From assembly GCA_045837725.1 (NCBI GenBank), contig JBEWZL010000145.1, positions 186,001 to 250,000 of the forward strand: a stretch of DNA of 64,000 nucleotides, given 5' to 3'. Below, one piece after another: positions 5,049 through 58,916 of the stretch. A program made the position numbers and the translations under genes. This stretch comes from Vermamoeba vermiformis (lineage: Eukaryota). The notes beneath the pieces are model-generated. The model searched no databases. It was given only the letters and a program-made list of their open reading frames with translations, and was not told the origin of the DNA. Position 1 is the first letter of the stretch. Each line of letters starts with the position of its first letter.

Positions 5049-8000
5049 ATGCTATCACAACTACCACCTTCGAGGAGGCCAGTCTATGCTGACAATGGTT
5101 CAAATCAACCCTCAATATTGCAATTAATATCGAGACTAGCAATTAAATTGGGTAGTCAACGATTAGAGACAGATCCAAAGCACAATAATGAAAAAATTCA
5201 AATAATTTATCAAAAATTACTCGATAAAAGGGTAAGCGTAAAATCACTCGAGTATATTGATGGAGAGTTCGGTTCCATTATTTCCATCAGAAAATATTAT
5301 TTAAATAAATGGCGCCATTTTCAAATTTCTTTTTTCCAGAGCAAGCCACGGTCCTCTGAGGCAGTAAAAGCAGATAATATGCGCACTAGACTTGCCCTAG
5401 AATTTGATTTTCGATCCAATGGCCTCTATGACCATTCCAATGCCCTCAGTTTGCTTTTGGATCACTTCAAGAGGTATGCACGATAGTGCTATCGGTCACG
5501 TGTTAACAGTAGCTCAGATGTAAATATATTCCATCGACATACAATAGACGAGTCAATGCACCATTAAGCGAACACGATGCTATTATAACATGTCTCCTCT
5601 CTCTGCGACAAGTAGATCTGTCAGCACATGTTCCACAGCTCTCAGAGTACGTACAAATGTATTTATTTGTATTTCTAACACGCGTTGTAGTTATTCGATA
5701 AGTCTGCTGAAGAAAACAGCGCAATATAATCGTGAGCTGTTGAGCTATCCAAAGGACGTGTATTTGTTCGGCGAGACTAAGATCGACAAGTACTTGCCAC
5801 TCAGCGAGTCAAACATCACGATATTTCACGATGATGTGTTTGAGCTCGATAGCGACACCGAGGATGACATGCAACAACCAACAGCAACAGATGAACGCGA
5901 GAAAGATTTGATGAATATGCTCACTCAGTTTGATCAAACACCGCGTAAGTTCTTCTGACCACCGAATATAATATGGAACTAATGAACGTAGTCATTGACG
6001 AAACACTGTTAATGGAACACGATCCAATAGTGCAACAACGATTGCTGGAGACTGAAACAAGTCTCTATGGCTCGCTTGTCAACCCTCGAGGTATTTCTCA
6101 TGTGTTACGTGTCTTAGCTTGTATTAACATGACATAGCCCCCATGCACACAATCGAAGTTAAGCTGTCCATCCCTGAACTCCCAGAGCTCCCCGATGACA
6201 TGAGCAAGTTCTCGCTATTCACGCGTGAAGTTGAGCTCGCGTCAGAATTCACTTCGTTAGCGAACATGCACAAAGAACTGGATTTGAGCAAATTTATGAC
6301 AAATGAACCTGACACTAGACCTGCCTCTGATGACGCGTTGGAGACATTTGATGCCGATCATGACACATTGCACGACCTCTGGCTGCAGTCACTGAACAGA
6401 GAAAGCACGAAGGTACGTCGAACAATTGCAAAGAGTTAATATACTGACCGATACAGCTTGCCGCGAGGTCATGGGACGGAAGCTGCACGACAGACAAATC
6501 GGCTTTAAAAAAGAATTTGTTGTCTTTCGATGCCAGTGACATCAAGCTGAAGATACGTGAGGACTGTCTCACTGACCCTGTGCTCAACAGAACCATGGCA
6601 CATTACCAACACAATGTGGAGTATGTTCGACATGAGTATATTAGATTACAAAATTAATCGATTGACAGACACAAAATCAAAGTGTCCAACTTGCCCGTAG
6701 CATTGGATGGACTTCCCTCGCTCGTTGATGACGTATTAAACTCCCTGAAAAAGAAGATTCCAGTAAATGAGCTCACAACAGTGTTACAAAGTGTCACGTG
6801 GTCACTGCTACGCGAAGAGTTGATTCAAATCGATCTACTCGTCAATGTGATCCAACAGTTCATTGACCAGATATTGGGTGGGCCTTTGGAAACGCACAAC
6901 GAAGCGGCTATCTTAGACCTGTCAAAGAGAGACGTGGTGCCTGAAAGTGAGGAGAGTGACATCTCTGATAACGATGCGGGGGACAGCGATGATGACGAAT
7001 TTTACGAGAACTATTATGCTCAGTTGGACGCTGATGAAGAAACAGCAGCGATGAACGAGTTCCCTAAGACACCTGTCAAATCTCACACGTCACGGCAAGA
7101 CCCATACAACTACAGCTTCTTCACGCACATGTCACTCAAAGATCAACTTGGACATTTGATGGAACACGATCGCTCGATGATTGAGCGTGCCTTCGCCGTC
7201 ACACTCGAAGAGATTGTGCAAACAATTCGCGCGACTGTTTTGAACCTGCCTGAGAGTGTTGACTTGACACCATTGTCGCAACACATCCCAGCCACCGAAA
7301 CTAGCCTAGAGCCCTCATTGGATGCACTCAAGCACGTGTGGCAAGACCCTTGGCCTTTGGAGCTTCTACCTCCTGTACATATTGTAAATACTGCCGATAG
7401 ACACACCTCTCCACAAGTGCCACAAGTCCTGCATGCACAACTGATGCAACGTCTTCAGCTCCTCCGCGACCAATCACGTGTCATTGCTAGCCTATGCACC
7501 TCTAGTCCAGTGTACCTCTCGGCTAAGTCTACTAACGACATCGATGCAGCTATTGAAGAGCCAGAGACACCTCGTGCCAGTGAACGAGGACCTCGACTGT
7601 TGAGTTATTTGTACGACCAATCTCAACAAGCTGATGACTACGGCTTCAGTCACCTTATATTCAAAAGAACATTCGGACCGTATTGCAAGATGATTGAAGA
7701 GTGGCTGTGCCACGGCAAATGTTGGTCCGATTACTTCGCGGAGTTTTTCATCGTCAAAGCAAAGCACAAGCCTGCACGCAATGCTGAGTATTGGACCAAA
7801 GCTTTTACGGTATGGCGCATATGTTTTGGGTCCACAATGATTAACAAGCATCAGAAACGAGAGGAACTGCTGCCAGTGTTTATGAAGGACTTTGAAGACT
7901 TGATTTACAAGACTGGCTTGGTAGTGAACATGTTCAAAGACATTCAGAGTCGCAATCACTCTCGCTCTGCTGTCCCTACACTACCCAAACATTTAGACCT

Positions 8001-20393: not shown

Positions 20394-21000
20394 ATGTCGT
20401 TCTTGGCTGATCTTCCTTGCGTCACTGCATCAAGCCAAGTTGTAATCGAGCAAAAGAAAATAACCCGAAGCGGCTCACCAATAAAAGTAGTGAAGCTAAA
20501 AAAAGTAACTTACATTGCCCAACACGAAACAAACCCACCCCAACATCAAGGTAAAAATCTTGAGATCCAGATCCGTAATTTTTCATTTTAAAATATTGAT
20601 TTTTACGAAATCCCGTATATACCCTATTTCGCTCCGAATTTAAATTAATTGTAGTATTATTCTCAATTAATTTTCATTCCTTTAGTTATTTCTACCGATA
20701 AAACCAATCTGCTGCTTCGCTTTTTATACAAACAAGAAAAGGTACCCACACCCATTAATATAAATGCGACCAATCATGTTAAATGTAAATATTCAGGCAA
20801 GAAAGAACAAGCGATCGCTGACGAACGAAGAGATCGACGAATCCACACCCAAAATCAAGCGTTTCAAATCCGAGCACAATCGTAACTCACTCGGTTCGCC
20901 ATCTTTGAATCGCAATCTGCCTGGAACGAATAATAACACTGCGGAGGAGGAAGTTCGCACCCCTACACGACCGCGACCGAAGAACAAACAACAACAGTGA
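20394..21000 (+). CDS. DDA1: DET1- and DDB1-associated protein 1-like
   Basis: MSFLADLP..; spliced YIAQHETNPPQHQ|VISTDKTNLLLRFLYKQ matches the DDA1 signature; 3 exons. Confidence 0.75.
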
Positions 21001-24707: not shown

Positions 24708-26033
24708 ATGGCACCAAAAGGCAAGAAAAAGAACCAACAAAAGAAGCCTGCCGGCGGAAGAAATGATGATAAAAAATTTGTTATTGATACAACGCGAGAT
24801 CCACAAGAATTACTGGCCGAGTTTGTTGCTAAAGAAACAGGGACAGACTCGCGCGGTGTTAAATATTCCAGTCTCAAAGGACTATGGGAGGACGTATTAT
24901 CTAAAACACAGCAACAAGATGTAAATACAAACAACACGAACAACACCAACCAAGAGAGCTTGACAGTGGTGCATCACGGCCCTAACAACAACACTGCCCA
25001 ATTTATTCCCGGTGAAGAGTTCTTGAAGCGAATTCAAGCCAAGGGCAATGAGTCGCGAGACATTGTCATGGACGAGCTTGAGCACGCACAGCCTGAAGTC
25101 AAACTGTCCGCGGTGCCTGTCAAACACGATGACGATGATGAGGACCACGCAAAGAGCGAGAATAAGGTCAATAATAATAAAGAGACGCCTAAGGAGAGTG
25201 CGGCAAAGACGAGCAATCAGAATCAGATCACATTTCAGTCGTGGTACCGCACCTCCACGGAGTACTGGAAGGACATTGACGCGTCCAACAATGGCATGCT
25301 CGGTGGATTTGCACACATTTCAGATGTTGTAAGTCGCTATAGCCGTTACTAATGACCTGTTCTAGCCCCTCATTAACTGCGCTGTTCAGGACATCTTGGG
25401 CTCGTACAGATTCTTAATTGACTTCTTAGAGGCGAAACAAAACCCTACACAGCGACGAAGCGCGATAGGTAACATAATATGGTATGTTTAATAGCAGGTG
25501 GTAACCCTTTTGTCTAGATTTCGGTGCGGGTATTGGTCGCATATCAAAATTACTGCTGGCCAAGCTGTTCAAACAAGTTGATCTGGTCGAACAAAACGAC
25601 AAGTTCTTGGCCCGAGCACGTACTGAACTCGAGGGCAGTGGCGCTACACATCGCTATTTGACATCGTCGCTGCAAGGCTTCACATTTGATGCCAAGTACG
25701 ACGTGATTTGGGTGCAGTGGGTGCTGCTGTATTTGACTGACAAGGACCTGATTGAGTTCTTGAAGCGATGCAAAGCAGCCCTGGCAGAGAACGGCGTGAT
25801 TGTGGTGAAAGAGAACTGCACTGACAAGGGCTTTGTGCTCGACACCTCTGACTGCAGCATCACACGGTAAGTACTGCAAGTGCAATATCCTATATTAACT
25901 GACACCATGCCACAGCTCGGTCGATCACTTGCGACTGATATTCCACGCTGCTGGCCTGACACTAGTGCGCGAGGACGTGCAAACAGACTTCCCCAAGAAA
26001 TTACTGCCCGTGCGCATGTTCGCGCTGAAATAA
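24708..26033 (+). CDS. NTMT1: Alpha-N-terminal protein methyltransferase
   Basis: YWK..ASNNGMLGGF, DFGAGIGRISK, YDVIWVQW, VVKEN, DCSITR, FPKKLLPVRMFAL. Confidence 0.92.
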
Positions 26034-26064
26034 ACCCGCGTTGCATCGAATACTATTTACATTG

Positions 26065-26944
26065 CTACAGGCGGAAGTAATACACGAGCACACCGAACAC
26101 AATCAGCGTGACGACCATGCCCGCGTACACGAGCAAGCGATCAGTGCGCAGTCGTCGTTCAATGTGTCGAATCACCGCGTGACTGAGCCCCAGTGTCGTG
26201 CCAATGTCCACCATCTTGCGCCGCACGTTCTCCATGGTCATGCCTTGTCGTCGCAGCACATCGAGCACATCAGTGCCCATCTCCATCAGTTCGTCTGCCA
26301 CGCCGTGCACGCGCCGCAGTGACTCGCCCTCAGCGCGCAGTTGTTGCACGGCTGTTTGGTTCTCACCGTGCGCTCGACGCCGTTCAGTCAGTTGTGCTCG
26401 TTCATCTGCTTGACGCGCTGCTAGCCATGACTCAAGTGCCTCGCGCAGTGTTCGTTGTTCGGCTGACAATTGCTGAATTTTACTTGAAAAATACCACGTC
26501 AGATCTAACTAGTTAACAGGACTGAGATTGAGTTGAATATTGTTATTGATATCGTCAGGTGTGTACTCAATGTAAACACGTTTAATAACAAGACCGTAGT
26601 CGTATGTTATTAAATTTATTAGCCGAGAGAACTGCTCATCATCCGAATTATTATTTAAAAATACCGCAAAAATTACTAATATTAATAACATACTATTTGG
26701 GGCCCTAATCTATGAGTACTTACATTCGCCAAATTTCTCTCGGGTTGGCAGCAATTAACTGAGTCTGCAATGTCTGCAGTGACTGTGTAAGGCGCGACAA
26801 GGCGTTGATATTGGTGGCAATGCGTCCTTGAAGAAATATTGACGTGTCTTTGCCTGTCTCGAGCTCTTCCAGTTGACTGCGCAGTGTCAGCAACAACTTC
26901 TTGGACTCTTTGTACTTGGTCTCTATTTCTGCTTCTGCATTCAT
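26065..26944 (-). CDS. GOSR2: Golgi Qb-SNARE membrin/Bos1
   Basis: Habc exon plus SNARE motif LRRQGMTMENVRRKMVDIGTTLGLSHAVIRHIERR and C-terminal TM; intron about 26723-26483. Confidence 0.9.
26552..26646 (-). ncRNA. Candidate intronic box C/D snoRNA
   Basis: Sense to host gene: TCG-G-ATGATGA (box C, 26642-26636) ... CTGA (box D, 26558-26555)-CGA terminal stem; internal hairpin TTTAATAACA/TGTTATTAAA. Confidence 0.55.
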
Positions 26945-27109
26945 GGTGCTGTTATATTATTGAGTGCTTATTGGTTCATCTTCGATTGAAAATATTTTAA
27001 TAAAAACTTTTAAGTTTGACAACGTAAGGGAAAAAATCACGTGCGGGAGTACTTGCTGATCTGACGAGCTCTGCAACACATCACAAGGTCGAAGTAGTTG
27101 CCAGTTAAA

Positions 27110-29321
27110 ATGGAGAAGGTACTAATCATACAAGTCATTTCAAGCACTATCGAATCTACCGGTGGATCGCAGATCTACGATCGGGATCAATTAATAATTT
27201 TAATTTATCGATTATCTTATTCTTCGTATTTATGATCATCAGTCAATGGCAATTTGATTTGATCGTTAATAATTAATTATTTCGGATCCAGATCGCAAAA
27301 AGAAATAATCAGAGAGAAGCACCAGCGCAGCACGTGGAGAGCGCGCATGATTTCCCGTAATAATATGATATATTTAGATTATTTAATGCTAACATCCTGT
27401 GCAGGCAAGCAACCAACTTCGATTTTGACTCGGATCGTGTGATGCTCGTTGACGATACTCGTGTATTATTTTTACATAACAAAGAGGTACGCGAATTGTG
27501 CTTTGTTAATTCGGTTAGCTAATGTCACACAGCGGATCTGCTTTCAAGGTCGACTGCAAATGCGTGTGCTGCACGGCCAAGTGACAGTGCAGGGTTACAT
27601 CGCCCAGCCCTCATCAGAATATATGGACCTCTATGCCCCGTACAACCATCAAGCGATTGTCATTGACACACTCGATCCACTGCACAATGAACTCGCGTAT
27701 GTCAAGCGACAAGTGCCCGCACAGTCCGAGGACGAAGAAGACGAGCTCAAAAGTCTAATTATGACACACGTCACCAAGAAGCACGCAGCGGTGATTGCAC
27801 TGCGCACGATGGACGAGAGCAGCGACAAGTACCAGTCCACCGCGCTGTTCCGACACCTGTTCGAGTACCCTGCACGCCGCGTCACCAACACTGAGGACGC
27901 GGACAGCGATGCAAATAGTGAACTGGACTCGGCGTATGATCCACTCGAGCTAGGTGACATGCACGTGGTAAGTCAGTCGGTGACAGGTGTCAAAACATTG
28001 TACTGAACAGAGGCGCAGGTGACGCACGACAACGGTGCCCAACAGCTCCTGACACTGCCGCACGAGTGGCTGACACTGCGCAAACAGCTCTTGACAGCCA
28101 ACACCGCGCCAGTGCTGTTCATTTGCGGCAGAAAGGGCAGTGGCAAGTCTACTCTTGCGCGCTGGCTGACCAACTCACTGCTCTACAAGTACGTGCAGTG
28201 GCAGTAGTATTCGTCGTGCTAATGCAGTATATTCACAGATATCCACGCGTGCTGTACATGGACTTGGATCCGGGTCAAACAGAATTCACTCCCCCAGGTC
28301 TGATTTCACTGAATGAGGTCACTGCACCACTCCTCGGTCCCCCCAGCACTCACATGCACGACCCTATTCTCGCTCACTTTATTGGTGACATTACACCGCA
28401 GACTGACGTCGATCACTTTGACCAATCAGCGATCGCACTGTTCACCGCCTATTCAGAGCTACATAATACTGCCAAGTGTCCGCTGATCATCAACAGTCAT
28501 GGCTGGATGCAGAGCCGCGGCTACACGAGTCAGATCCGACTGATCAATCACTTCCGACCCCAGCGCATCGTACAGCTCGCGGAAGATCAGAGCAAAGCAC
28601 CGCTGCACATCGCAGACCTCAAGGCGAGTCAGCACGGCACTGACTGGGTGCCGCTCATTCACACCTTGCCCACCGCTGAGAGTGCGGCACCACGCATCAG
28701 ACACACGGCTGCTGATTATCGTAGTCACGCCTATCGCTGTTACTTTGAAGACGCGCGCTGTCGCACATTGCGTGTGTCGTGGCGTCACTTGGCCATCGCA
28801 TTCATGGACGAACTGCCGCCCAGCCAGGCACTGTACGCCCTCAACGGCACAGTGGTCGCACTCACTGTCGACACGCGGCCGCGCAGACTGCTGAATGAGG
28901 TGAGTAGCTGTCAGTCTACAGTCCTTGACGGTGTTTGACACGTGTCATTCAGGGACTCGATCACAGTGCCGAACAGTTGCCCAAGTACTTGATGCACCAC
29001 GCTGTCGGTGTCACCTCGTGCGCAGGACTCGGCATCATCAAGGCCATTGACGTCAAGCAGAAGTGTTATTTGATCAGCACGCCACTCGACCTCTCGCACC
29101 TCGCCGCTGTCAACACCATCGTGCGCGGCAGATTGCACTTGCCCAACGAACTGTTGTTAGAGGTACGTATCGTTTGTATTGCATTGATCAGCACTGACAA
29201 TGCACAGAGCCCGTCAATCAACTCGCCGTACATCACCACGGACTCGATCTCAGGTGTGGGCACTGGTGCCACTGAACTCAAGAGCCGCGCTCTGCTGCGT
29301 CACCGATTTGACAAACAGTAA
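27110..29321 (+). CDS. NOL9: Polynucleotide 5'-hydroxyl kinase NOL9/Grc3
   Basis: P-loop CGRKGSGKST, DLDPGQTEFTPPG, IINSHGW, LYALNGTVVAL, GLGIIKAID. Confidence 0.88.
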
Positions 29322-39994: not shown

Positions 39995-41115
39995 ATGCAA
40001 TCAAAGGGCTTGATTTTCCGTCAATTGATCCAAGAGGCACTCAAAACTAAGAAGCCACTGCAGATCGTGGGAGCAGTCAATGCTTATTGCGGCATGCTCG
40101 CTAAAAAGACGGGTAATTATTGTGCATGTTATAATATTGATGGTGCCCTTCAGCGTGGTAGCCAGATCAAGATATATTTTTCAAACTCGTGAATTCATTA
40201 GCCACAGATTGTGACAAATAAGGAATTAATTCATGCATATTATTAATGTATTGTTTTAACTATTATTCTTAGGTTTCCAAATGCTCTATTTGTCCGGCAG
40301 TGGCGTTGCGACTGCCAGTCACGGGTGCGTACAAACAGCGCTGCACTTGTTGCCATATTCTTCATTAACACTGTTGCAGATTGCCTGATTTGGGCATCAC
40401 AGATCTGCACGATGTCGTCGAGGATGCCAAGCGCATCATTCACGCCACGGATGCACCGCTGCTCGTCGACATCGACACGGGTCTCGGAGCCACAGGTCTC
40501 AACATTGCGCGCACCATTCGCGAGCTCGAAGCAGTCGGTGTGGCAGGTGTGCACATTGAAGATCAAGTCGCCGCCAAGCGTTGTGGCCACAGACCGGGCA
40601 AAGCGATCGTGCCCACGAGTGAGATGGTGGATCGCATCAAAGCGGCAGTGGCTGCTCGTCGCGATCCCAACTTTGTCATCATGGCGCGCACTGACGCCCT
40701 GGCCAATGAGGGACTCGAGGCTGCCATCACTCGCGCGCGTGCCTACATTGCAGCCGGTGCGGACATGTTGTTCCCCGAGGCCCTCAACGACCTCAAGCAG
40801 TACCAGGAGTTCGCGACACAACTGCCCAATGTGCCGCTCTTGGCCAACATCACCGAGTTCGGCAAGACACCGCTGTTCACGGCCCAGGAGCTCGGTGCTG
40901 CGGGTGTGGCGATGGTGCTGTACCCGCTGTCGGCCTTCAGAGCGATGAGCAAGGCCGCGCTCAATGTCTACTCGCACATCTTGAAGGACGGCACGCAGGC
41001 CAATGTGCTGGACACGATGCAGACCCGTCAAGAGCTGTACGACTACCTCGAGTACCACAAGTACGAGCAACAGATGGATCAGCTGTTCGGTCCTGCGAAG
41101 GACGACGATAAATAA
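39995..41115 (+). CDS. prpB: 2-methylisocitrate lyase, bacterial PrpB type, 2 introns
   Basis: [69 protein letters not shown]. Confidence 0.93.
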
Positions 41116-41223
41116 CGAGTAACAACTCACTCGAAATAAAGCTGTTGCACCGCTCAGAGCAATGGGCGCAGTATTAGTATTGATTGCAGATTTAATTATT
41201 TACAAGTTTACAATGAGAAAGTG

Positions 41224-44200
41224 TTACCAGAACGGACACCAGCCAATGTAGCACTGACACAAGTTGTCTTTGGACGTGGCTTGTGCAATGAGCTTGGTGA
41301 CCTGTTCGTTGACCATCAGGGGCTGCTCGTTGTTGAAGTCGCGGCCCGAGAGCTTGTTGCTGACGCGATTGATGACGAACAGCGCGCGCTGATTGAGCAC
41401 ACCGATCTGTGGCTGGGGCATGAAGGCTGTGGGGGCCTCGTTCTGTGCGCGCGAGGCATTTCTGAAGTTGTTGTCGTCGCCGCTGTCCGTGCTGCCCCCG
41501 CGCGGTGCAGTGGTGCGATAATTGTTCTCGTAGAGATCACCTGACGAGGCCGAGTCGTCGTCTGCCGTGTTGGGTCGTTTGAAGCTCTCTGTGGACTCGT
41601 TGAGCACGTCAGTGGAGCGCAGCAGATTGATGTTCATGTTCAGCTTGAAGTTCTGCAGCTCAGCGGGCTGTGGCGGCACTACATCGCGCTGAGGCTTGAA
41701 GTCCGAATCAGGGCCTGACATCTCGTCCAAGTCCTCGGTGCTCTGTGACATCATCAGTGCACTGGTGGCGTTGGTTGGCGCTGGGCCGTTGTTGGTCAAC
41801 AGTCTCCAGTTGATCAGTGGATCGTGCACAAAGGCCTCGAGCACGGCCATCAGCGACTCTTTGTGTTCGCGCAGCACTGTCATCACTGTCTCGCACGTGG
41901 AGCGGAAATTTCCTTCGATGCCACTGACCTCCATAGCATTGGTGAGCATGCGCGTGAGTCTGAAGGGAATTTTCTCGGGATATTTTTCACGCTGCATGGC
42001 GACTTCAAAGCAGTCGCCAAAGTCAATGTGAATGATCTTGCCGGTGTGCCGATCGAGCATCAGATTGCTGGGGTGTCTATCGCCGAGACCGAGAATGTAG
42101 CCCACCATGGACATGACAGCCAATGAGCGCGTGTAGTTGGTGCGTCGTTCGAGCCAGATCTCGCTGTTGGGACTCTTGAGCCACAAGACGCGCTCCAAGT
42201 CCATGCCATTGGTGCTCTCGAGTGCGAATTCAAACACTTCAACCTTCTGAATCAGCGAGAGGTTGTCGTAGTCGGAGGACATTTGCAGCATGAGACGGTG
42301 TTCAATGTTGAGGATGATGTTGCGGGACTGGCGGTAGTCGCGAATCAGTTGATGCACGGTATCGCAGTGCGGCACCCAGCCAATCAGACCACTGTTCGGT
42401 GACAGCGGAATCACTGCGTAGCGCGCAATGCTGAGATTGGAGAGGTTCTTGTTGGTGTCGATCGATGAGCGCGTCTGATCGTGCGAGGTCTTGCGTCCTC
42501 CCTTGAGCAGCGTGTTCACGAGTCCAAACAGCTGCATCACGCGCTCGTCCTGGCGCAGATCTTCGTGTCCCTTCAGCAAGAAGTAGTACTGCACGCCATC
42601 GCTGCCCACCACCGCCAACTTGCGCGGCCGTTGTTTGCTCGTGATCACTTGCAGCACGGGCTGGAAGTAGGCAATGCGCACCACGGCACGCTGGGGCTTG
42701 TAGGTGCCTGGCACTGCGAGCTCCATGTCACGTGCCTCCAAGAGCTTGGGCGAGACGTGTTTGAGCTCGAGTGTAGTCATGCCTGGCAACTGCTTGTTGA
42801 TGCGACGGAAGGCGTGGTAGTACAGATCCCACGCGTGATTCAGATCTGCGACCTTGCCTGATCGGGAGTATTTCTGTGCGGTATATCAGTCACGTGACTC
42901 AAAAAGAATACCGCTAAAAATAGATGACACGTACCTTGCACCACTCCAAGGCCTCAGCGAGTTCTCTGCCATATGCCTGTTGAAATGAGGCCTCGCGCGA
43001 GGTCTCAGGCCCGACATCCAACAAGCGGTGCAGTGGTCCGAGCACTTCAAACATGCCGTCCACATTGTGCTCGCCAAAGTACAGGCGCGAGGCATCTTCC
43101 AAGCCCTCGTGCCACAACTCGTGCCACAGAATTGCAACGCGAATCAGCTCCTTGCTGACCATGAGTGCCTGATCGACCAGGGCTGCGCTGTGTGTGCGCA
43201 TCTTGTCCATGATCTGACGGGCTGCAGCGAGTCGTTGGTGACTGGGTGACTTGCTCGCCACGGTCAGCGGGTACACGAGTGCTTGCGGATGTTCTTTGCC
43301 AATGCGCACCAGCAGTCCGTGCAGCAGTCGTCGCACCGCACTCACTGGCGAGTGCACGCGCGCAATGATCTGCGGAATAACTTGCAGCCACGTGTCAATG
43401 GAGAGCGTGTTGAAGCCATCGATCAGCGCCATTTCCACTTGCTTGTCCGCACCGTACTTGAACCACAGTGTCAGCAGACGCAGCGTGTCTTGCAGATTGT
43501 GGCCCTGACTCAGTGCAATGGAGCGGAAGAAGCCGTGAATGGCGGGCACTAAATGCGCGCGAATGCGTTCTGCCACCAGCTTGGAGTCCTTGCTCTTGGA
43601 CGAGGCCGCTTGTTTCTCGTAGAATGCAATCACGTCAAAGTTGAGCATGGCCCACGCGTGCCAGGCGCGGTAGTACTGCGGATCGAGCTGCGTGGCGGCT
43701 TTGAGTGCGCGCAGTACGGTGGGGATGTTGTCCTCGCGCAGTCCCTCTTGCAACACGAGCTGCCACTGGCCGAGCTTGAGTGACACGCGCGCTTGCAGCT
43801 CATTGTCGTTCTTGAGCTGCGTGGCGAACTGTTGCAGATAGTGATAGGCCATCTGCTTGGGACTCTCGGCCCACAGCTGCTTGATGAAGGCGAAGGTGAT
43901 GCGCGGTGCGTGCACGGGCAGGGGAGTGCGCGGATCGAGGGACGGATCGCAGCCCAGCAGCGAGGTGAGGGTGGTGTGGGCCAGGCGGTGACGATCGCTC
44001 TTGCGACACAGCGCGGCAAATTTGAGCCACACTTCCGTGTCCTGGCCTGCACCTATCACCAGCGAGCGCACTGCCACGGAGTTAGTAACGACACGATACA
44101 CTGCACAGCTACGGTACTGTACCTGAGAGCAGTCGCTGCCAGACATCGGGATCGCGCTCACAGCCCTTGAGCCGTTCAGTCCAGTTGTGCACCAGGGCCA

Positions 44201-47200
44201 CACGGCGCTCAGGATAGGCCTCGCTCTTCTTGTACTCGATGATCTCTTCCATCTCCGCCAATTGTTGCAGACGCACCAGCACATCGTAGGCACGCTGATA
44301 GCTCTCACCGACCAGGGCCGTCAACTCCGTGTCCAAGAGGTGTCGCGTGATGTCAATGTAGTGGTGTGCCTTGACGAAGTTGTTGCGGTGTATGTACATG
44401 ACTGCGCGGTAGAAGGCACCCTCCAGATCATTCGTGGGCAGCACGCGCACGTACTCGCGCATCTTGTCCCAGTCTTGCAGCGTCCAAGCAGCTGCTGCAG
44501 CCATGGGGGCAATGATCTTCTGCGCGGGCAGTTCAGCTTTGGTCCACTCCTCTTGCGTCACCTTGGCGAGCTGTGCCCACTCCCCGAGTGCTTTGAGACA
44601 GCGCATGCGTCCCAGCTTGATCTCGAGGGTGCTGTGCTGCTGCTGATCTTTGGCCTCGTACTGCTCCAGCGCCTTCTCCCAGCGACCCAACTTCTCGTAC
44701 CAGGACTCCTTGAGCTCGACTTGATGCGTCTGTTGCGCGTACTTGAGAATGCCGACTGCCGCTTCAGGCAGCGCGAGTTGATTGTTGATGCTGATCAGCG
44801 CTTCGATCGTGTCAATGTTGCTCGGACACTCTTTGAACTCCAGCTCCAAGTAGTGCAGCGCCTTGGCATAGGCACGACACTTCTCGGACAGCTGTCCTAG
44901 TGTGTGTATGTCTATTGGCAGTGGCTTGTCGTCGTGTTCCATGAACTCGGCCAGATCCAACAAGTTCTGCAAGATCTCGTTCGGAATGTTGCTCGACAAG
45001 AGTGCTGCTTCGAGATTGCGCACCAATTCGTCTTGATAGGCCTCGGGCAATTCATTCCAACACGACACAAAGCCCACATTGAACAGCTCGCGCACGAGGG
45101 GATAAAAGTCCGCCACCGCGAGACAGGAGCGCAGTGCTGGCGAGGGACTCTCGCGCAACAGTTCAATGCTGAAGCGACGGATCCAGTCGGCCCAGTCCTC
45201 GCGGGTCAGGCGCGCTGTGGTCTCCCAGGCCTTGCGCAACAACTGCTCGTTGAGCTTGAGTTTCTGCATGGGCGCAGTCTCAATGGTGTTGCTGCTGTGT
45301 GCCTCGTTGGACTCGTCGTTCTCAATCATCATCTGACCGTGCACGCCCAGCACATCGGTCTCCTCGGTGTACTCGTCGTCGTACTCGCTCTCGTGCGTGG
45401 CAGGACTGGGCCCCGTCATCTTGAGCAAGTGTCCCTCGAGCTTGTCGTACTCAATGTGCACAATGTTCTTCTGATCCAACACCTTGCGCACCATGGGCAC
45501 GAAGATGAGATAGTCCTCGCGCAGCTGAATCAGCAAGTAGCACAGTGTCTGCATGCATACATCGCGCAGTTCAATGCGCAGGGAGAGGGCGCGCACGAGG
45601 GGCTGAATGATGCGCGCAGCATAGGCCGAGACATTGAGTCGTCGCGCCAGTCTGCCAATGGTGACTATCGCTTGACGTGTGAGCACGTGATCGGTGTCTG
45701 TGTCCTCGAACAGCTTGACCACTGCAGGCACAACGAGGTGCAAGTAGTCGTCGAGCAGCGTGTTCAACACTTCGAGGGTGCGCAGTGCCTTGGTGGTGGC
45801 GAGTTTGTGCGTGGAGTGGTCGTTGTGCAGAATGGCTAGCAGCAGCGGCATGATCTGCGGCAAGTAGGGTCTGAACTCGTCGTTGAGTGCCTTGGACACC
45901 TCTTCAATCAGCAGCAGCACTTGTGTCACGTGTTGCGTGGACCAGTACTCGCGAATCAGCTGATTGATCTCGCTCAGAAAGTCGCGCACGTGTTGCTTGA
46001 CAATAGAGACGAGCACCACGAACTGTTGCAGCAAGAATTCTCGGAAACCTGGCTCACCTGTGTGACTCGTGATTAGCGTTCAGTGAACGAGAGCTATTTA
46101 TAGCATCGAGATACGTACTGTTGCGCATGAGATTCATGAATGCGGGCATGATCTGCGGCAAGAAGGTGGTGCACTTGAGACCAAGACTGTTGTTCATGAA
46201 CATGATGGCCTGCACTGCCTGACGATGATGCGTGCTCAGCGAGGGGTCTTTGATGATCTTCAACAGCGCTTCAACTGCCGCATTCGGGTAGTAGTCCTCG
46301 GAGCCCAGCTGCGCATCTGCACTCTTCTCATCACCGAGCAGTGAGGCTGAGGGGGCGAGCGAGGCCAAGTTACTCTTCTTCTGCGTCTTGAGCTGGATCT
46401 GGCGATGTCGATGCGGATCCAATGCCCCGAGTATGCCGAGCACTTTAATCACCTCGTGTCGCACCGCTGGCAACTGATCGGTCTTGATGATGGTGAACAG
46501 CACGTCCAACAGCTTGGGATAGTGCAGCAGTGGCTTGATCACATAGCCCGTGGACTGCGTGACGATGCCCAAGCACTTGAGCGCCACCAATCGCTTCAGT
46601 GCACTGCTGTAGTCTTGCAGCGTGTCCACGATCAGCGGAATCAGCTCCTCCACGTGCTGCGCCATCAGCTCTTGCGGGGCTTGACGTGCCAGCGAGCCAA
46701 TCGCGCGCAGGGCACACGACGCCACACGCGGATCACTGTCCTTGACGCGCGGAATGAGCACTTTGAGCACGGCACTCACATAGGGCTCCACCAGTCTGCT
46801 GTGAATGGGGCTGTAGAAGCTGCCCTCGCTCACTGAACTCTGCGCTGCGGTGCTGGCACTGTTGGGCGGGGCGGTGCTGGCACTCGGCTCGTTCTGCACA
46901 GAGGGCAGTGCACCGGTGCTGTCGAGATTGTGCAGATTGTTGATGTAGTAGTCGGGGCCACCAATCAGACCGGCCAACAAGCGCGCACTCTGTTCGCGGA
47001 GCAGACTGTCCGTGCTGTACTCGAGCTCGCTGAGCAGTTCTATCATTTTCTTGCGCAGACCGGGCAGCACGTAGGCGGGATTGCGAATGGCGCAGCGACC
47101 AATCACCCCCATGACGAGCTCGCGTATCTCAAACACCTCGTCGTTGAGTGCGAGGAACAGCAGGCGCAGATTGTCCTGTTGCGCCAAGAAGGGATCGAAG

Positions 47201-49195
47201 TACGGATCGAGATTGGAGATGACCGTGCGACGAATGCTCTGATCGGGGTCACTGATGCCCGTCTCCAACAGCTTCAGCAGCACCTTGCTCATCACTTGCG
47301 CACTGTACCCGCGCACATTGTTCAGCGAGGCACCGTCCATGCGCGGCACCATCAACTTGCAGCACGTGAGACAGGCCTCTTTGCGGATCTGCACCGTGTC
47401 GTGCGAGAGGTAATTCATCACACCATCGCGCAAGAACTCGGTGAGCAAGTAGCGATCAAAGTCGAATGTGCCGAGTGTGCGCAGTGCGAGGATGACCAGC
47501 GCTGGATCGTGCTCCACACCTGGGGCCAGCAGCTGGGACTGCACTTTGCGGCGCGGCGGTGCTCCCGGATAGGTGAATTCTTTTTGCACGAGCACCTGCG
47601 AGAGGAGATCGAGCAGCTTGAACTGAATGTCAAACGAGAGGTCAGGGATGTTCTGCACCAGCGAGGTGAGTGCCTCCACGAGTGTGTGCGTCAGTCCCCC
47701 TGCAAACATGTGCTGCAACAGCTCTTTGCTGTAGGGCTGCAGTGTCGAGCCCACGGCCTTGGCGAGCATGGACACGCAGATGAGTGCCTCGTTGGAGAAT
47801 GCGCGGCCCTTGGTGGTCATCGTGGCGCGCACCACCGCGAGAATGGGCTCGAGGTAGTCGGTGATGTTCTCGCGCACTGAGAGCGCTATCTTGCCGATGG
47901 CGATGAAGGCGTGAGGTCGCTCGTTGTCTCGTCGCAGTGCTTGCAACAACTGCGCCATGATGGTGGGCAAGTAGGACTGCGAGAACTCGTACGGCGAGAA
48001 CTTGGCCAGCACGGGCAACAGCGAGATGATGGCTTTCTTGATGAGTCGATTGTTGGAGCCCCAGAACTTCATGGCCGAGTCACACACGGGCTTGTACTTG
48101 TCGTTCATGAACTGGCCCGTGTTGCGCACCAGTTCCCCGAGGGCGAGGAGGGAGCCGTGAATGACCTCTGCGGCAGGATTGCTGTGTTTGAGTCCCTTGA
48201 CGGCCTGGTCGTATATCTTCTGATACCACTGTTGGTGCAGTGGGGAGTGCACATCACGCTCCGCCAACAGATGCAAGCAGGCACGCAGCGCATCCTTGGC
48301 AGCCAAGCGAATGTTCAGATCCTTGTCTTGCAGTGCACCACTCACGATCAGATCCAAGAACTGTTGCACGTGTATGTAGAAGGAGCTCGGGGCATTGCTC
48401 GCCATCTGCGACAAGATGAGCACCGCTGCCAGCACGTGACCTGCTTGTCGATCACCCAGCCACTCCAGTGCGCGCGCCACTTCTGCTTCGACGAGATCAC
48501 CGACCACGAGTCCAGAGCCCATGGTGCTTGTGGTCGCTTGCATTTGACCTGCTTTGACGCGCGCGAGTTTGCCGAGAGCTTTGCTGGCCAATAGCAGCAC
48601 GCGCTCATCACGTGATGCGAGTCCGAGTCGGAGCAAGTAGACCATGCGCGTGACTTGACTGGCATTCTCTTCCGTGTCTACATCAATCAGGGCATCGATG
48701 GCCATCACACCGCCAATCTTCTCGTTCACTGCACTGCTGTTGATCAGCTCGCCCACCACCTTGTACACATCTGTCATGAATTGGGTGAAGCTTTCGGTGG
48801 ACAGCTCTCGCGATTGAATCACCGTCTATGCAATCGTACGATTGTTAATATATGACTGCGTACTAACAACAAGCAATAGAGATACGGCTTGATCTAGATC
48901 CACCTGCAGTCACGGCGGTTGTAATGAGAGAGTATTACTTACATAATTTGCCAGTGCCTTCGATGCTCTATATCGATCTTCTTCATCCCTATGTGCAGAG
49001 CGTCAACAAAGCTCCATGAATTGACAACAAGGAAATTACAAAAAAAAAATCAAAAATTAATTTAATAATGAAAGTATTTAATAATAAACAGATGCGATTA
49101 TAATTGACGATTAATTACCTGCTCTTTAATTTTAATTGTATTTTCACAAGAGTCTCGTCAGGGTGAGACTTTGAATCCAGAACTGTTGACTGCAT
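41224..49195 (-). CDS. TOR: Target of rapamycin kinase
   Basis: HEAT repeats, [16 protein letters not shown] ([21 protein letters not shown] Ser retained), kinase [13 protein letters not shown] and [24 protein letters not shown]. Confidence 0.99.
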
Positions 49196-52483: not shown

Positions 52484-54630
52484 ATGCCCGTTATTACTGT
52501 AGCTAAAACAGAGTTGTTCCGTGTGCTCGGTGAAGAGTTCAGTAAGTTCAGACTCGATCCATTGCAGACGCTACTACTAGTTGTTGACTAACTGCTCTCA
52601 GCTGACGATGAATTCAGTGACCTGTGCTTCAAGTTCGGTATTGAGCTCGATGATATTGTGAGTAGTGTATTATATTATTGATTGTTGGCTCACTTCCATT
52701 TAGCACGCCGAGGATGGATCAAAAGATATTACTAACGTACCTGCTCACAAAATTATGTATAAAATTGAGATACCAGCTAATAGGTACTACATAATTAGCC
52801 AAGACATAATTTTATTATTGAAAACAAGAAATTAAACCGTTCAACAGATACGATCTGCTCTGCCTTGAGGGTCTATCAAGAGCGCTTAGAATATTCCGTG
52901 GCAGAGAAAGCTTGCCCAACTATCGCGTGTCTCAACCAGCGCAGATGCAGCGCATGGTCATCAAAGAGTCCGTGACTGCTATTCGCGGTGTGGTGGTCTG
53001 TGCCGTGCTGCGCAACATGCACTTCACGCAAGCAGCGTACGACAGCTTCATTGACCTGCAAGAGAAGTTGCACGAGAACATCTGTCGCAAGCGCACATTG
53101 GTCAGCATTGGCACGCACGATCTCGACACGATCCAAGGCCCCTTCAGCTACGAGGCCCTGCCCCCGCAAGACATTGTGTTTGCACCGCTGAACAAGACGA
53201 CGGCTGTGACTGGCGCGCAGCTGATGATTGATCTCGCGGCTGACAATCACCTCAAGAAGTACTTGCACATCATTCAACACCTGCCCACCTACCCCGTCAT
53301 ATTCGATGCGCAGCGCCGCGTGCTCTCCTTGCCCCCGATCATCAACGGCAATCACTCCAAGATCACGCTCAACACGCGCAATGTGCTGATTGAGATCACC
53401 GCCACGGACCTCACCAAGGCCCTCACCGTGCTCGACACGATGGTCGCCATGTTCGCGCAGTACTGTGCCGTGCCCTTCGAAGTCGAGCCCGTGGAGATTG
53501 TGCACGAGAAGAGCAATCAAGTGCACGTCTATCCGCAGTGGGGTCAGTGGCCGACTGTCACCGCTGATGCTGCAAAGATCTGCAAACAAGTCGGCATTGA
53601 ACAGCAGCCCGTCGCCGATCTGATCGCCATGCTGCGTCGCATGAGTCTGCCAGCACGTGCCAGTGCCACGTCAGCCACTGAACTCGTGGTCGATGTGCCA
53701 CCCACGCGCAGCGATGTGATTGCCGCGTGCGATGTGATGGAGGACGTGGCGATTGGCTACGGCTTTGAACGCTTGATTGCGCGCAAGACCATCCCGCACA
53801 CCTTGACGAGTGGTCGCCAACAGCCGCTCAACAAGCTCACCGATCAGCTGCGTCACGTGCTCGCTTGCGCTAGCTACGATGAGGTCTTGACATTCGGATT
53901 GGTAAGTGTTGCGGCGTGACATTCGTGACGTTCTAAAAATAGCTCATTGCCCCGTGCAGGTCTCGCGCAAAGAGAACTTCACTTCACTGAACAAGCCAGA
54001 CGACAACTCTGCAGCAGTGATCGCCAATCCCAAGACGCAAGACTTCCAAATCGCACGCACCACGCTGCTGCCTGGTCTGCTCAAGACACTGCAGAGCAAC
54101 AAGAGCTTGCCGCTGCCACTGCGCGTGTTCGAGATCTCCGACGTCGTGCTCAAGGACAGCACGGTGGACGTCGGTGCTGCCAACAAGCGCATGTTGTGCG
54201 CTGTCTACGCCGACACCAGCTCTGGATTCGAGGTGAGTAATTCCGCTCAGTGCTTGACACTTGCTGACACGTGGCACAGAACATTCACGGTCTGTTGGAC
54301 ACGATCATGACTGCCCTCGAAGTGCCTTGGAAACACCGCGATGACAGCAAGAAGAGCCGCGTCAAGACACACGAGGCACATCAAGGTCCCGCACTCAGCT
54401 ACGAAGTGTTGCCTTCTGAAGGTGAGTACTGCACTTAACTACTGACTGGAGCTGTACTAACAACGACATTAGACACCACTTATTTCCCTGGAAAGAGAGG
54501 AGATGTGTATTTGAATGACAAGAAGATCGGTGTCTTTGGTATCTTGCACCCTGAGGTCTTGAAGCACTTTGGTCTTACTGCCCCGTGCTCTGCCCTGCAA
54601 ATTGAGATTGAACACTTTGTTGATTACTAA
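52484..54630 (+). CDS. FARSB: Phenylalanyl-tRNA synthetase beta subunit
   Basis: [77 protein letters not shown]. Confidence 0.97.
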
Positions 54631-54701
54631 ATAAACATTTGGCATTGTCCATCCAGTTTTGGAGCATATCCGTTGATGGTGGTAGCTAGAAAGTTACTAA
54701 G

Positions 54702-55227
54702 TTAGAAAGTTGCACACGAGTAGAGATACCAGAGGAACCTCATTCTATCAAGATCCAATGCAAAGCTTACACCCACTTCAACCAGTTTGCTATCTGCCAG
54801 TAATAGGTGTCTTAAAGCCTTGTATGGCCTGGAATCCGAAAGTAAGTGGACAACTCTTTTGCTCAACATATGAACTGAATGGTCACTGTAGTGTCCACCA
54901 CAGGGAGGCTGTACTGCACATGTGAGCAGCGTGCCCATCCGCAGTTAGAGGGTCCAATTGTGGTTTGAGAGTTTGCCAGTTTGGAAGCAGAGAGTCAGAG
55001 AAGCATCGTCAGATTCATTTCAGGCCCTGCTACTTTGATTCTGAATCCCTTCTTCCTAGAAGTTGCCAACCTCTGCCTTTAGCACCAGCGGACCCAAGGT
55101 ACAATGTTGCATTGGACGCTTTAGGCTAAGTCTGCTGGAGGCTGAAAATGGCATTGTTCTGCAGAACTTAAGTACTAGAACATTGTTCTATATGCTTCAA
55201 TACCATTTAAACTTTGGAAATACCTAG
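54702..55227 (+). pseudogene. Decayed paralog of orphan ORF 56481-57020
   Basis: Colinear blocks LESC, SFYQDP, QPLPLAPADPR, ENGIVLQNLSTRTLFYM; needs two frameshifts and has an in-frame TGA at 54923. Confidence 0.6.
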
Positions 55228-55256
55228 AACTATCACTATGTAACAAGAAAATATAA

Positions 55257-56064
55257 GGAGGTCGGCTTGCATACTGTGAGCTGGACGTCCACCATGGGCA
55301 GGGCGTCCGCTGACCTTAGGTTTTCTCTGACAGTTGCAGCAATTGCTTAGATTATTGTATTATTGATATGTTTCTGCTATATCCAGTGCATCTGATGGTC
55401 TTGGACAATTTCTAAAGGAGCTGGAAAAATTACACTCATCAACAGAACTAATCTTCTGCATACCTCACTTGGCTCCAAATGTTTACAGTTTCAATAGCTA
55501 TTGTAAGCAGCTTGCAAATCTATGCGTGCACTCAAATCAAAGCTGATACAAAAAAGTTGACATGCACACCCTTTCAGCAACATAAAATTTGTAGAGAATT
55601 GAAAATACACCAAGTTCTATACAGAACTATTGATGCATCAATGAGGTTGGTCTGTATAAGTCTTTTTTTTTGCAACCAACTTCAATGGGAGTTCTTCATA
55701 TGTAAGCAACAAAATAGCCAGAAAATTCATAATCAATCTTTATATGGGTGGTTAAGCTCTGTGCTAGTACTTAAATGGGGTTTGCTGAAATCACCAATGT
55801 ATGGCAACTTCATCCCCTCCTAATCTCTGTTCTACAGCACTCCTCAGCAGCCAGAAAGCAAAGTCCACCCATATTATATTCATGTTCTACATGCTGAAAC
55901 AAGGTGCATTTGAATTGGTCAATTACTAAGGTCGGTGGACGCCCCGTCCACGGTGGACACCCTGTCCATGGACGGACACCCTGACCATGGGCGGACGCCC
56001 CGACCACGGACGGACACCCTGACCATGGACGGACACCTTGCTCACCATGTGCAGGACGACCTCC
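55257..56064. mobile_element. Non-autonomous TIR element (PIF/Harbinger-like or foldback-like), TAA flanks
   Basis: Left arm 55257-55319 matches reverse complement of 55926-56064 (GGAGGTCG..TGCA..GTGAGC..GTCC..GACCTTAG); TAA at 55254-56 and 56065-67. Confidence 0.65.
55937..56040 (+). repeat. Tandem 18-19 bp repeat, about 5.5 units, consensus GGACRCCCYGWCCAYGGAC
   Basis: Units start at 55937, 55955, 55974, 55993, 56012, 56031. Confidence 0.95.
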
Positions 56065-56356
56065 TAAGTAATCACAAAGATATTATTGTGACAGCAATTT
56101 GTAAATTAGTAGCATTAAGTATGAACCCATCCATCAGCACATACTTTGTACAACATCACTACACGTATTTTATGCACCACTGAACTTTAGCTACAATTCA
56201 TTGTCACCTAACTGTCCAAAAATTTTTGTATCGTTCATACTTTTTTATGTTGTAACTTTGTCCAGCATGGTGGCAAATCTGTTTATATGGGAATATGCTT
56301 AACCACATACATGGCATATAGAAATCTTGTTAAAATCTTCTTACTTTATGATGTAT

Positions 56357-56420
56357 GGTCGGCGGACACGCAGTCCGTGGCGGACGTCCAATTTTTGCCG
56401 GACAGGACGTCTGCCGTGGC
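56357..56420 (+). repeat. Third, partial copy of the GGTCGG/GGAC repeat family
   Basis: GGTCGGCGGACACGCAGTCCGTGGCGGACGTCC aligns with reverse complement of 55283-55315. Confidence 0.85.
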
Positions 56421-56480
56421 AAACAGTTTTAAAATTGTTGGATATGCTTAATCATATCAGAAAAAAACGACACTATGGCA

Positions 56481-57020
56481 TCAGCTCAGAAAGAACAAAG
56501 TTTGGTGCGAGAGTTCTTTGCAGAACATGCCATTTTCGTATGCAACTCTTTGCGCCTCCGTGCCACTAGTAGTACTTCTTGAGTCCAGTGGTGCTAACGG
56601 CAAAGTTTGGATAAGTTGGCTTACCAACCTCAGTGGCCAGCAACCATGGATTGATGCATTGTCCACACAGATGAGACGTCCACCCCTTAACTTTGGTGCA
56701 GCACTATGGGATGGCATAACTCGCCAGAGGATGGACATCCTCTCAGGGGCTAGCTGAGCATAAGCAATTATGAACCTATTGAAGGTTGGCCAATCCAGTG
56801 TAGAGGACGTAGCCAGCCAGGGTGAGATGTACAGCCTGGCTAAGTTATCTGGCCCAGACAGTTGTATGTCCTGGACAAGTAAAAACTTCCATATGTAGGG
56901 TTTGCAAACCTTTTTGTGTTCGGTAACCATGGTGTGATGAAATTCCCGTCCAAGGAGGCTGGGTCTCTCATAAAAACTCAGATCATGTCCCAGTTCAGAG
57001 ACACAACTTTCAATTCCCAA
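56481..57020 (-). CDS. Orphan ORF of unknown function (start not defined)
   Basis: 179-codon open frame; frame supported by residues shared with paralog at 54702-55227 through different codons (Leu CTC/TTA, Ser TCG/AGT, Thr ACT/ACA). Confidence 0.45.
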   Translation of the reverse strand: MGIESCVSELGHDLSFYERPSLLGREFHHTMVTEHKKVCKPYIWKFLLVQDIQLSGPDNLARLYISPWLATSSTLDWPTFNRFIIAYAQLAPERMSILWRVMPSHSAAPKLRGGRLICVDNASIHGCWPLRLVSQLIQTLPLAPLDSRSTTSGTEAQRVAYENGMFCKELSHQTLFFLS

Positions 57021-57458
57021 AAAAACCGAGGTTCTACTCAGAACATAGATTCATTCTTTTCTGCATGTCACTGTTCTCAAGCCCAGATCATATAATAACA
57101 AATACGAGATTTCTTTGTCTGTTACTAAAGCTGGACACCCCATCCAACCAGCCTCTAGCCTCTGGGCTACTCAAATTCAGGATACATACCATGAACCACT
57201 GGACATCTTTGAAGAGTTACATTTGGGCCTATTCCTCCAAGCACCTGTTTTAAGCAGGAAATCCATTTTAGAATTGCAACTTGGGCAGGTGTCCACGTGA
57301 AATGCTTGTAGACTTTGTACTGTTCATTTTTTTTTGGTGCCTGCCAAAATAACCAGTCCCTAAGGTCGGCCAAGCGAAGGCTAACATTTTTATCTCTGAC
57401 TTTCGTTTTTAATGTTCTCTATGCATAAAATCGTTTATTATGAAGAGGATGGAAGAAA

Positions 57459-58916
57459 TTATTTCTTGGGGTTGTAGCTGTTGGCGAGTTCAGTGCCGCG
57501 AATGAATGTGGGCTCGACATACACATCGTGGTACAATTCTTCAGGCGCGGGTTCAGGGCTTTCACGCGCGAATTTGACGGCCTCATCGACCTCAGCCTTG
57601 AGCTCGTCGCTGATCTTCTTCAACTCCTCGTCGGTGGCGAGCTTGTTGTCCAACAAGTACTGTTGCACCTTCAAGATTGGATCGTGCATGTCGCGCATCT
57701 GTTGCACTTCTTCGCGCGTGCGGTAAGTGGTGCCCGGATCGGACATGGAGTGGCCTTGGAAGCGATAGGTCTTGGCCTCCAAGAAGATCGGGCCCTTGGT
57801 CAGCGCGTGTTCCTTGGCGTACTTGCCGACCTCGCGCGAGACGAGCACGTCCATGCCATCGAACTGCAGGCCTGGCAAGTAGTCACCGCGCGTGTAGAAC
57901 TCTTTGGTGGCACTGGCACGCTCAATGCTGCAAGGGGTGTGAGTATGGACTGTACAGCGCGGCCACATCCGTTACCTGGTACCCATGGCGTAGAGGTTGT
58001 TCTCGACCACGTAGATGACAGGCAGCTTCCAGAGCTGTGCCATGTTGAAGGACTCGTAGACCTGGCCCTGATTGGCGGCACCATCGCCAAAATAGGCAAC
58101 TGTCACTGTGCCAGTCTTGTTGTACTTCTGCGCGAAGGCAATGCCCGTGCCGAGCGGTACTTGTGCGCCGACAATGCCGTTGCCGCCGTAGAAGTTAGTA
58201 GCGCGCTTGTACATGTGCATCGAGCCACCCTTGCCCTTGCTGCAGCCAGTGGATCTGCCCGCGAGTTCAGCGAGCACTTCTTTGGCTGTACCACCGCAGC
58301 GACGCGTGACTAAGAAGCCGTGATCACGATAGGCAGTGATGACGTGATCTTGCGGGGTGAGCGCTGATTCGAGACCACTCGCGACTGCTTCCTAGGAGCA
58401 CATTCAGAACACGAGTTAGCAAATCTGCGAGGAGTGCACTGTGCGAGTGCTGCACATCACCTACCTGACCGTTGTACAAGTGCAAGAAGCCACGAATCAA
58501 TCGGTCCTTGCCAGTGTACAGTGTGTTCGCTGCAACTTCCATTTTGCGGATTAAACTCATCTCGCGATAGTAACCCAAGAGCTCTTCACGCGTGGTGTAA
58601 GTGAACATGGGGGGTGCATCGACGTTGTGTGTTTTATATTGTGACTACACGCAGCATTAGCTCCTTGTTTGTTGGCCATAGAAAATATTTTCACTATTAT
58701 TTGATAATATTGTCAATTATTATTATATTAATTACCTTGAATTCAATCTTCACTGAACCTGCAGGCTGATCAGTCTTCTTAGCTGCATAGCTACGAGTGA
58801 ATATTTGGACCTGCTAATAATAGAGTCAACAAAAGGCTTTGGATCAGCTGCTCCATCTGACTCACGTCCTTGCGCGCAAGTTTCTTGAAAGTCTGCTTGA
58901 CAACTGCCCCCAACAT
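57459..58916 (-). CDS. PDHA1: Pyruvate dehydrogenase E1 alpha
   Basis: [43 protein letters not shown]. Confidence 0.98.

Follow-up and report, generated by a model that had tools for sequence, protein, structure and literature searches.

Within a 64,000-nt stretch of the Vermamoeba vermiformis genome (contig JBEWZL010000145.1; the whole stretch is called the window below), the genes for the phenylalanine-tRNA synthetase beta subunit (FARSB) and the E1 dehydrogenase alpha subunit (PDHA) converge on a long gap, whose composition and probable history are described here. The frame ending at 54630 (+) carries the B1, B3/4, B5 and C-terminal domains of the synthetase, and the frames at 57459-58391 (-) are those of the dehydrogenase (Pfam). 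The FARSB stop codon (54628-54630) and the PDHA stop codon (57459-57461) are separated by 2,828 nt, in agreement with the ~2.8 kb given in a first-pass annotation of the same DNA; its statement that other convergent gaps are short held in spot checks on the open reading frame (ORF) map only, e.g., 3558/3610 and 9233/9346. The window is eukaryotic: assembled contigs of one RNA run (X11) splice out short GT..AG introns at 53901-53958, 54231-54277, 54420-54470 and 57928-57975. In protein searches the PDHA exon is closest (96%) to a transcriptome protein whose accession names Vermamoeba vermiformis, the next named relative being Arcella (61%), which points to V. vermiformis or a close relative as the host.

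CpG content of the gap

The segment 54631-57440 (2,810 nt; hereafter the island) holds 54 CG dinucleotides, an observed/expected ratio (o/e) of 0.42, against 3,566 and 1.03 for the rest of the window. Successive 500-nt bins across 54501-57500 have CpG o/e values of 0.28, 0.32, 0.37, 0.85, 0.35 and 0.48, the bin at 0.85 being the one that holds the CpG-bearing repeat motifs described below; the remaining 122 of the window's 128 bins range from 0.67 to 1.62. When 200-nt bins were matched for GC, the 15 island bins differed from the 194 outside (Mann-Whitney p = 1e-8), with median CpG o/e of 0.26-0.40 in the three GC classes containing 3-6 island bins versus 0.97-1.19 outside. Two more classes, with one island bin apiece, gave 0.00 and 0.54. 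Of the CpG-free runs in the window, the longest three (408, 217 and 191 nt) fall inside the island; the longest elsewhere is 163 nt. The first-pass counts of one CG in 55321-55920 and seven in 53401-53460 were reproduced, the lone CG, at 55525, being also the only one as far as 55925. The CpG depletion of the gap is real and well beyond chance.

The depleted domain was originally placed from 54640 onward. Its onset proved to lie at ~54403, upstream of the FARSB stop codon, so that the last FARSB intron and exon are included, and its end coincides with the PDHA stop codon. The last FARSB exon is CpG-poor though functional: it has 2 CG (o/e 0.26), and its GC content at third codon positions is 0.50 versus 0.66-0.78 in the upstream exons.

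Compared with AT-rich host DNA, the island has a CG rho of 0.42 (versus 1.08), a raised CA/TG (1.34 versus 1.13) and a nearly equal TA (0.76 versus 0.79). Low CpG, raised TpG/CpA and unchanged TpA together have the appearance of a footprint of 5-methylcytosine (5mC) deamination and not of repeat-induced point mutation. The latter was considered and rejected, since TpA excess and CpA deficit are expected of it. The suggestion that the gap had been silenced by CpG methylation is plausibly right, as loss of CpG with gain of TpG/CpA fits methylation-driven decay.

A CpG deficit could also arise without methylation if an unconstrained spacer drifted towards AT while the gene-dense remainder kept its CpG through coding, codon-usage and regulatory constraint. 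Compatible with such drift, the spacer here and that of a relative described below are both AT-rich (GC 0.29-0.44), the window is filled nearly wall to wall with genes, and GpC and CC/GG in the island are also somewhat unlike controls. However, CpG o/e is 0.83-1.21 in nine further AT-rich stretches that lack long open frames and have the same or lower GC (538-1335 nt, GC 0.34-0.40), so that AT-matched host DNA does not share the island's low value. Moreover, the depletion is CpG-specific, is matched by an excess of TpG/CpA, and extends into the functional FARSB exon. We therefore regard simple AT drift as rather unlikely.

A high-copy repeat core and its nested element

Copy number was read from X1, a DNA run of the same organism whose contigs were placed on 53700-58199, with depth summed per position (942 contig pieces, 316 of them at least 99% alike). 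Depth is flat at ~96 over the genes and 54600-55046, which gives the single-copy baseline. Summed depth is 6,180-6,989 over 55050-55349, 788-2,593 over 55350-56099, 15,071-15,420 over 56100-56399 and 116-1,213 over 56400-57449. Values so far above the baseline identify the central ~1.4 kb (~55047-56440) as dispersed repeat DNA, present in tens to more than 100 copies, some of them nearly identical. The window itself contains no second copy of the gap repeats.

Inside this core lies an 808-nt element (Y in Table 1) with perfect GGAGGTCG / CGACCTCC termini at its two ends. Its 25-nt terminal pattern has exactly two matches in the 64 kb, in inverted orientation (55257-55281 on the forward strand and 56040-56064 on the reverse), where 0.02 would be expected. 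The inverted arms are 35-55 nt long at 74-76%, and an inner CTAAGGTC(R)G(Y)GGACG motif stands near both ends. At 55933-56037 Tandem Repeats Finder (TRF) reports a tandem array of 5.6 units, each 19 nt long and partly palindromic (DNA fold z = -2.5). The frames of the element have no Pfam match, the longest being 123 codons. The CpGs that survive in the gap are concentrated in these terminal and subterminal transposon motifs.

X1 contigs also include the outer repeat without the element: one joins 55254 to 56076, and another reads past 55257 straight into sequence like that from 56069 onward. These contigs reveal an empty site with one TAA. TAA is preferred as the target-site duplication (TSD) because the termini then become symmetric. 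The 808-nt element has the structure of a non-autonomous DNA transposon with terminal inverted repeats (TIRs), resembling a miniature inverted-repeat transposable element (MITE) and nested in another repeat. A 3-bp TWA target duplication is a hallmark of PIF/Harbinger (Tourist-like) elements, and the TAA of this one insertion suggests a PIF/Harbinger-like assignment. A Stowaway-like MITE of the Tc1/mariner superfamily was also considered and rejected, as no TA duplication that leaves symmetric ends fits the flanks (TAA-GGAGG ... CCTCC-TAA). The 64-kb window contains no autonomous partner or transposase for the element, and no description of this repeat family was found in the searchable literature on the organism.

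The first-pass annotation had taken the whole gap for one insert of an undescribed mobile or virus-derived family with mirror architecture. Its inverted repeats, 19-nt tandem array and CCTAAGGTCGGC motif are all real, and the idea of an undescribed mobile family stands for the core on the strength of its high-copy depth, TIRs, TSD and empty-site contigs. It fails for the 2.8 kb as a single insert, about half of which is single-copy. Two inverted matches give the gap its mirror look: 55282-55318 with 56354-56390 (78%), and 55066-55189 with 56492-56610, the second of which places a diverged, inverted version of the left repeat arm in the right spacer. Both matches are best taken for pieces of related elements that lie in opposing orientations. 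Within the right outer repeat, 56354-56420 forms a palindromic, GC-rich block related to the subterminal motif of the 808-nt element (fold z = -2.3).

Table 1. Features of the FARSB-PDHA gap and its borders, in window coordinates
Feature	Position	Strand	Evidence and remarks
Last FARSB intron	54420..54470	+	X11 spliced RNA contig joins 54419 to 54471; CpG-poor domain begins, last dense CG 54402
Last FARSB exon	54471..54630	+	Pfam PF17759, E = 4.6e-11; in X11 RNA contig ending 54636
Left single-copy CpG-poor spacer	54636..55046	.	o/e 0.29; 3376-nt X1 contig covers 53700-55046 with 0 differences, depth 96
Outer high-copy repeat, left part	55047..55253	.	~60-70x single-copy depth (X1); boundary approximate
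TAA target-site duplication, left copy	55254..55256	.	sequence and empty-site contigs (X1)
Element Y, non-coding TIR element, 808 nt	55257..56064	.	termini GGAGGTCG...CGACCTCC; ~8-27 copies by X1 depth 788-2593
AT-rich core of Y	55321..55925	.	1 CG in 605 nt, o/e 0.05; TpG/CpA o/e 1.51
Right subterminal region of Y	55926..56064	.	TRF, repeat family D1/D2; carries 12 of the island CGs
TAA target-site duplication, right copy	56065..56067	.	sequence and empty-site contigs (X1)
Outer high-copy repeat, right part	56068..56440	.	up to ~160x single-copy depth (X1); boundary approximate
Right, mostly single-copy CpG-poor spacer	56441..57458	.	o/e 0.37; X1 contigs depth 67-94, minor variants depth 27
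ORF-B, open frame of 189 codons, no support as gene	56481..57050	-	longest island frame
Last PDHA exon	57459..57971	-	Pfam PF00676, E = 4e-39; normal CpG from here

Single-copy flanks, open frames and a syntenic relative

The same two genes converge on L001, a metagenome contig of 3,562 nt that has PDHA, a 1,043-nt spacer and FARSB. Its genes are 82-84% identical to those of the window at the nucleotide level, with a fourfold-site distance of 0.73. The spacer of L001 has a GC content of 0.29-0.35, 3 CG, a CG rho of 0.10 and a CA/TG of 1.41, and contains no notable repeats or open frames; the 200-nt bin with the final FARSB exon (2201-2400) is likewise CpG-poor (o/e 0.24). Comparison of the island with this spacer by blastn, local alignment against shuffles, tblastn and tblastx revealed no homology beyond the gene ends, and the left spacer at 54636-55046 is unalignable (z = 1.4). 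The sole collinear similarity, between 57016-57067 and L001 1642-1699 (CCCAAAAAAA..GTTCT.CTCAGAA...), has z = 2.4, below the best shuffle, and may be a remnant of orthology or a chance match. Without its repeat core the spacer of the window amounts to ~1.4 kb of single-copy DNA, comparable to that of L001. Because the L001 spacer is CpG-poor without these repeats, CpG erasure at this site would be old, locus-bound and earlier than the repeats, and the transposon nest appears to be a later, lineage-specific addition to an old CpG-poor spacer. A spacer at the same place in a relative speaks against a foreign island and leaves the mobile-element reading of the core intact.

Short X1 contigs cross both joints between the genes and the island without differences; those at the PDHA end span 57329-57483 and 57454-58199. 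A water-metagenome run (X4) also contains the FARSB end and single-copy pieces of the island. Together these contigs make an assembly chimera unlikely. A CpG-poor genome piece mis-joined between amoeba genes, through chimerism or contamination, would suit the low-CpG, high-TpG/CpA profile, which resembles that of methylated genomes. It is hardly credible beside the junction-crossing contigs, though X1 may be the source sample, beside the independent X4 pieces, and beside the same arrangement with a CpG-poor spacer in L001.

The right spacer has a solo CCTAAGGTCGGC at 57359-57370. Over 56729-57483 the X1 contigs come in pairs, with depths of ~70 and ~27 that sum to the single-copy value of ~96. 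The paired contigs differ by substitutions and small indels, and the adjacent coding DNA is a single contig with 0 differences, which suggests two haplotypes or sub-populations at ~3:1.

The X11 spliced RNA contigs cover FARSB and PDHA with 0-2 differences per piece, and none lies in 54750-57450. The gap thus appears to be transcriptionally silent; that it would be so across all conditions is an extrapolation. At the FARSB end, AATAAA overlaps the stop codon (TAAATAAA, 54628-54636). The X11 RNA contig ends at 54636, a cluster of 6 molecules from a second, raw RNA run (X21) ends at the same place, and L001 is arranged similarly. With RNA ends at 54636 in both runs, the FARSB 3' untranslated region seems to be just ~6 nt long.

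The two frames that the first-pass annotation had set at either end of its layout, ORF-A and ORF-B, are mere open frames, which Pfam, homologue searches and fold prediction fail to support as genes. Pfam searches at E <= 1 on 15 of the 50 listed island frames gave no matches, with no capsid, integrase, polymerase or packaging ATPase among them, and Rfam (E <= 1) and tRNA scans of the island found none. ORF-B has no homologue by word-based search, no phmmer match in 1.84 billion representatives, and no counterpart in L001. Its single-sequence AlphaFold2 model has a mean pLDDT of 38 and no confident fold. A resemblance to the MTR4/Ski2 'stalk' (ESM Atlas clusters at 0.91-0.93) was rejected as chance, with a recognition score of 1555 (<2300) and 159 shared features (<170), both under the reliability marks of the tool, and no Pfam match.

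These searches also bear on a foreign origin, that is, on DNA already CpG-poor on arrival from a giant virus, a virophage or another organism. The composition of the island is distinct from its flanks, giant viruses are known to infect the genus, and a recent account reports viral integrations in its genome (10.64898/2026.05.21.726589). However, the 15 frames searched have no Pfam match and the longest frame has no homologue. When viral contigs were scanned with four repeat motifs, only L081, a GC-rich contig sharing just the 19-mer, was found, by chance; the other three motifs were empty, and prokaryote genomes scanned with a repeat motif gave 0 matches. The core is a high-copy host repeat, and the corresponding spacer of L001 is CpG-poor and lacks this sequence. 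A virus-derived or otherwise foreign island is accordingly very improbable, and that part of the first-pass proposal is abandoned.

The spacer could instead have a chromosomal function, for example as a small regional centromere or as an origin or termination zone, or could hide a fast-evolving lineage-specific gene (ORF-B), with the transposons as bystanders. The gap is unique in the 64 kb and has been kept in two lineages at a neutral distance of 0.73 without sequence conservation, and ORF-B is longer than the longest frame in 998 of 1000 shuffles. Against a hidden gene stand the missing homologue, fold and L001 counterpart noted above. Indel-carrying X1 contigs also lie over ORF-B, some above single-copy depth and maybe from paralogous copies. 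As for a centromere-type element, its presence once on each chromosome is more than a single window can show. Either version strikes us as improbable.

Outside the gap, the window is a dense array of housekeeping genes, including those for mTOR, an EF-2-like protein, actin, a gamma-tubulin complex protein, ETF-alpha, diphthamide synthase and CLP1/NOL9, and others. GC content is uneven, at 0.35-0.50 over the first 38 kb versus 0.53-0.62 across the mTOR region (40000-48800), and CpG o/e is near 1 in both despite this contrast. It is well above 1 in the AT-rich bins 20501-21000 and 27001-27500 (1.62 and 1.58, both at GC 0.38), and is 1.36 in the GC-rich bin 26001-26500 (GC 0.56). These three bins may represent promoters between genes that are enriched in CpG. 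The X21 reads, which have the same species label, match the genes of the window (53700-54600 and 57450-58199) at 90-95% identity in 822 of 1167 cases, and just 22 of the 1167 placed reads are at least 99% alike to the window; the corresponding value for L001 is 82-84%. Deeply diverged lineages seem to share this species label.

A probably silent spacer with nested transposons, and comparable systems

We favor, with a probability of roughly 0.6, the explanation that the gap is an old, silent, non-coding spacer with nested non-autonomous transposons, its CpG erased by methylation and deamination. A long-standing silent spacer between the 3' ends of FARSB and PDHA would have been enlarged in this lineage by non-autonomous DNA transposons, first by the outer high-copy repeat (~55047-56440) and then by the 808-nt MITE-like element (55257-56064) inserted into it. 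Insertions between two 3' ends would disturb no promoter. Cytosine methylation of the silent domain, followed by 5mC deamination (CpG to TpG/CpA), would have operated both in this lineage and in that of L001, and would account for CpG erasure that makes no distinction between the repeats, the single-copy flanks and the last FARSB exon. If transposition continues only for copies whose binding sites are intact, CpGs would be retained in the motifs at and near the transposon ends. Judged from the mutational footprint, methylation-driven CpG decay is probably the likeliest cause of the depletion. ORF-B is left as a relic or a chance frame.

Several observations weigh against this explanation. When CG, CA and TG are left out, the dinucleotide distance delta* of the island is 113, a mild outlier relative to values outside (mean 60, 95th percentile 101, maximum 137), so that the difference of the island may exceed what deamination produces. 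Frames as long as the 189 codons of ORF-B were reached in only 2 of 1000 dinucleotide shuffles. As to silence, the assembled X11 contigs show presence rather than absence, and the 0 reads of X21 in 54750-57450 come from a strain 5-10% divergent and are hence uninformative on island expression. The target-site duplication is known from one insertion, and although TAA fits best, 2 bp (AA) or 4 bp (TAAG) fit the single empty site almost equally. The ends of the outer repeat, and with them any assignment to a class, are approximate, several skips of ~1,000 nt in contig joints having sides of only 23-30 nt. Finally, we found no report of a Vermamoeba methylome, DNMT1 or other DNMT, or MITE family; the supplementary DNMT tables of one relevant study (PMC12344493), which may list the genus, lay outside the search.

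We also entertain, tentatively, a stronger claim: that the spacer is a heritable methylation island, CpG-erased in at least two Vermamoeba lineages despite complete sequence turnover, and a tolerated landing pad for a recently active, undescribed TIR family. If true, this would be the first evidence of Acanthamoeba-like repressive 5mC in a tubulinean amoeba that is a major giant-virus host, and of Cryptococcus-like persistence at single loci, which here would extend into the last exon of an essential gene. The locus offers a small, clean test of whether Vermamoeba methylates cytosines to silence selfish DNA, and of whether a methylation state can stay locus-bound over long evolutionary time. 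The MITE-like family, probably recently active, should be useful for genome annotation and as a source of strain markers. A false lead is also removed, as nothing here indicates a virus or horizontally acquired genes.

Among known systems, endogenous giant-virus and virophage fragments in amoebae are similar in being compositionally deviant, apparently silent DNA in a giant-virus host. The gap differs from them in having a high-copy TIR repeat structure in place of any viral gene or viral-contig match.

The 808-nt element is closer to the Tourist-like MITEs mobilized by PIF/Harbinger transposases. Like them it is non-coding and multi-copy, has TIRs and short subterminal repeats, and is flanked by a TAA duplication with an empty site, as a nested insertion in another repeat. 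It is unlike them in that no transposase lies in the window, its TSD length derives from a single insertion, and its GGAGGTCG termini and 19-nt palindromic array matched no described family. Its 808 nt stand at the upper end of MITE size.

For the methylation itself the nearest parallel is Acanthamoeba castellanii, where DNMT1/DNMT3-dependent 5mC marks young transposable elements and silent genes, without gene-body methylation (PMC12344493). A regime of this type would give exactly the contrast seen in the window. Both hosts are amoebozoans, and here too the genes have a CpG o/e near 1 while the apparently silent, repeat-bearing region is depleted, with an excess of TpG/CpA. The differences are that methylation is read here from a mutational footprint, that the host is tubulinean, and that a coding exon and single-copy DNA fall within the footprint as well.

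With respect to persistence, the V. vermiformis spacer invites comparison with a fungal system, although our comparison involves two lineages and a CpG footprint taken from sequence alone. Locus-bound methylation maintained by Cryptococcus DNMT5 reportedly persists over the long term by maintenance alone. Similarly, this one locus is CpG-poor in two lineages between which most neutral sites have turned over.

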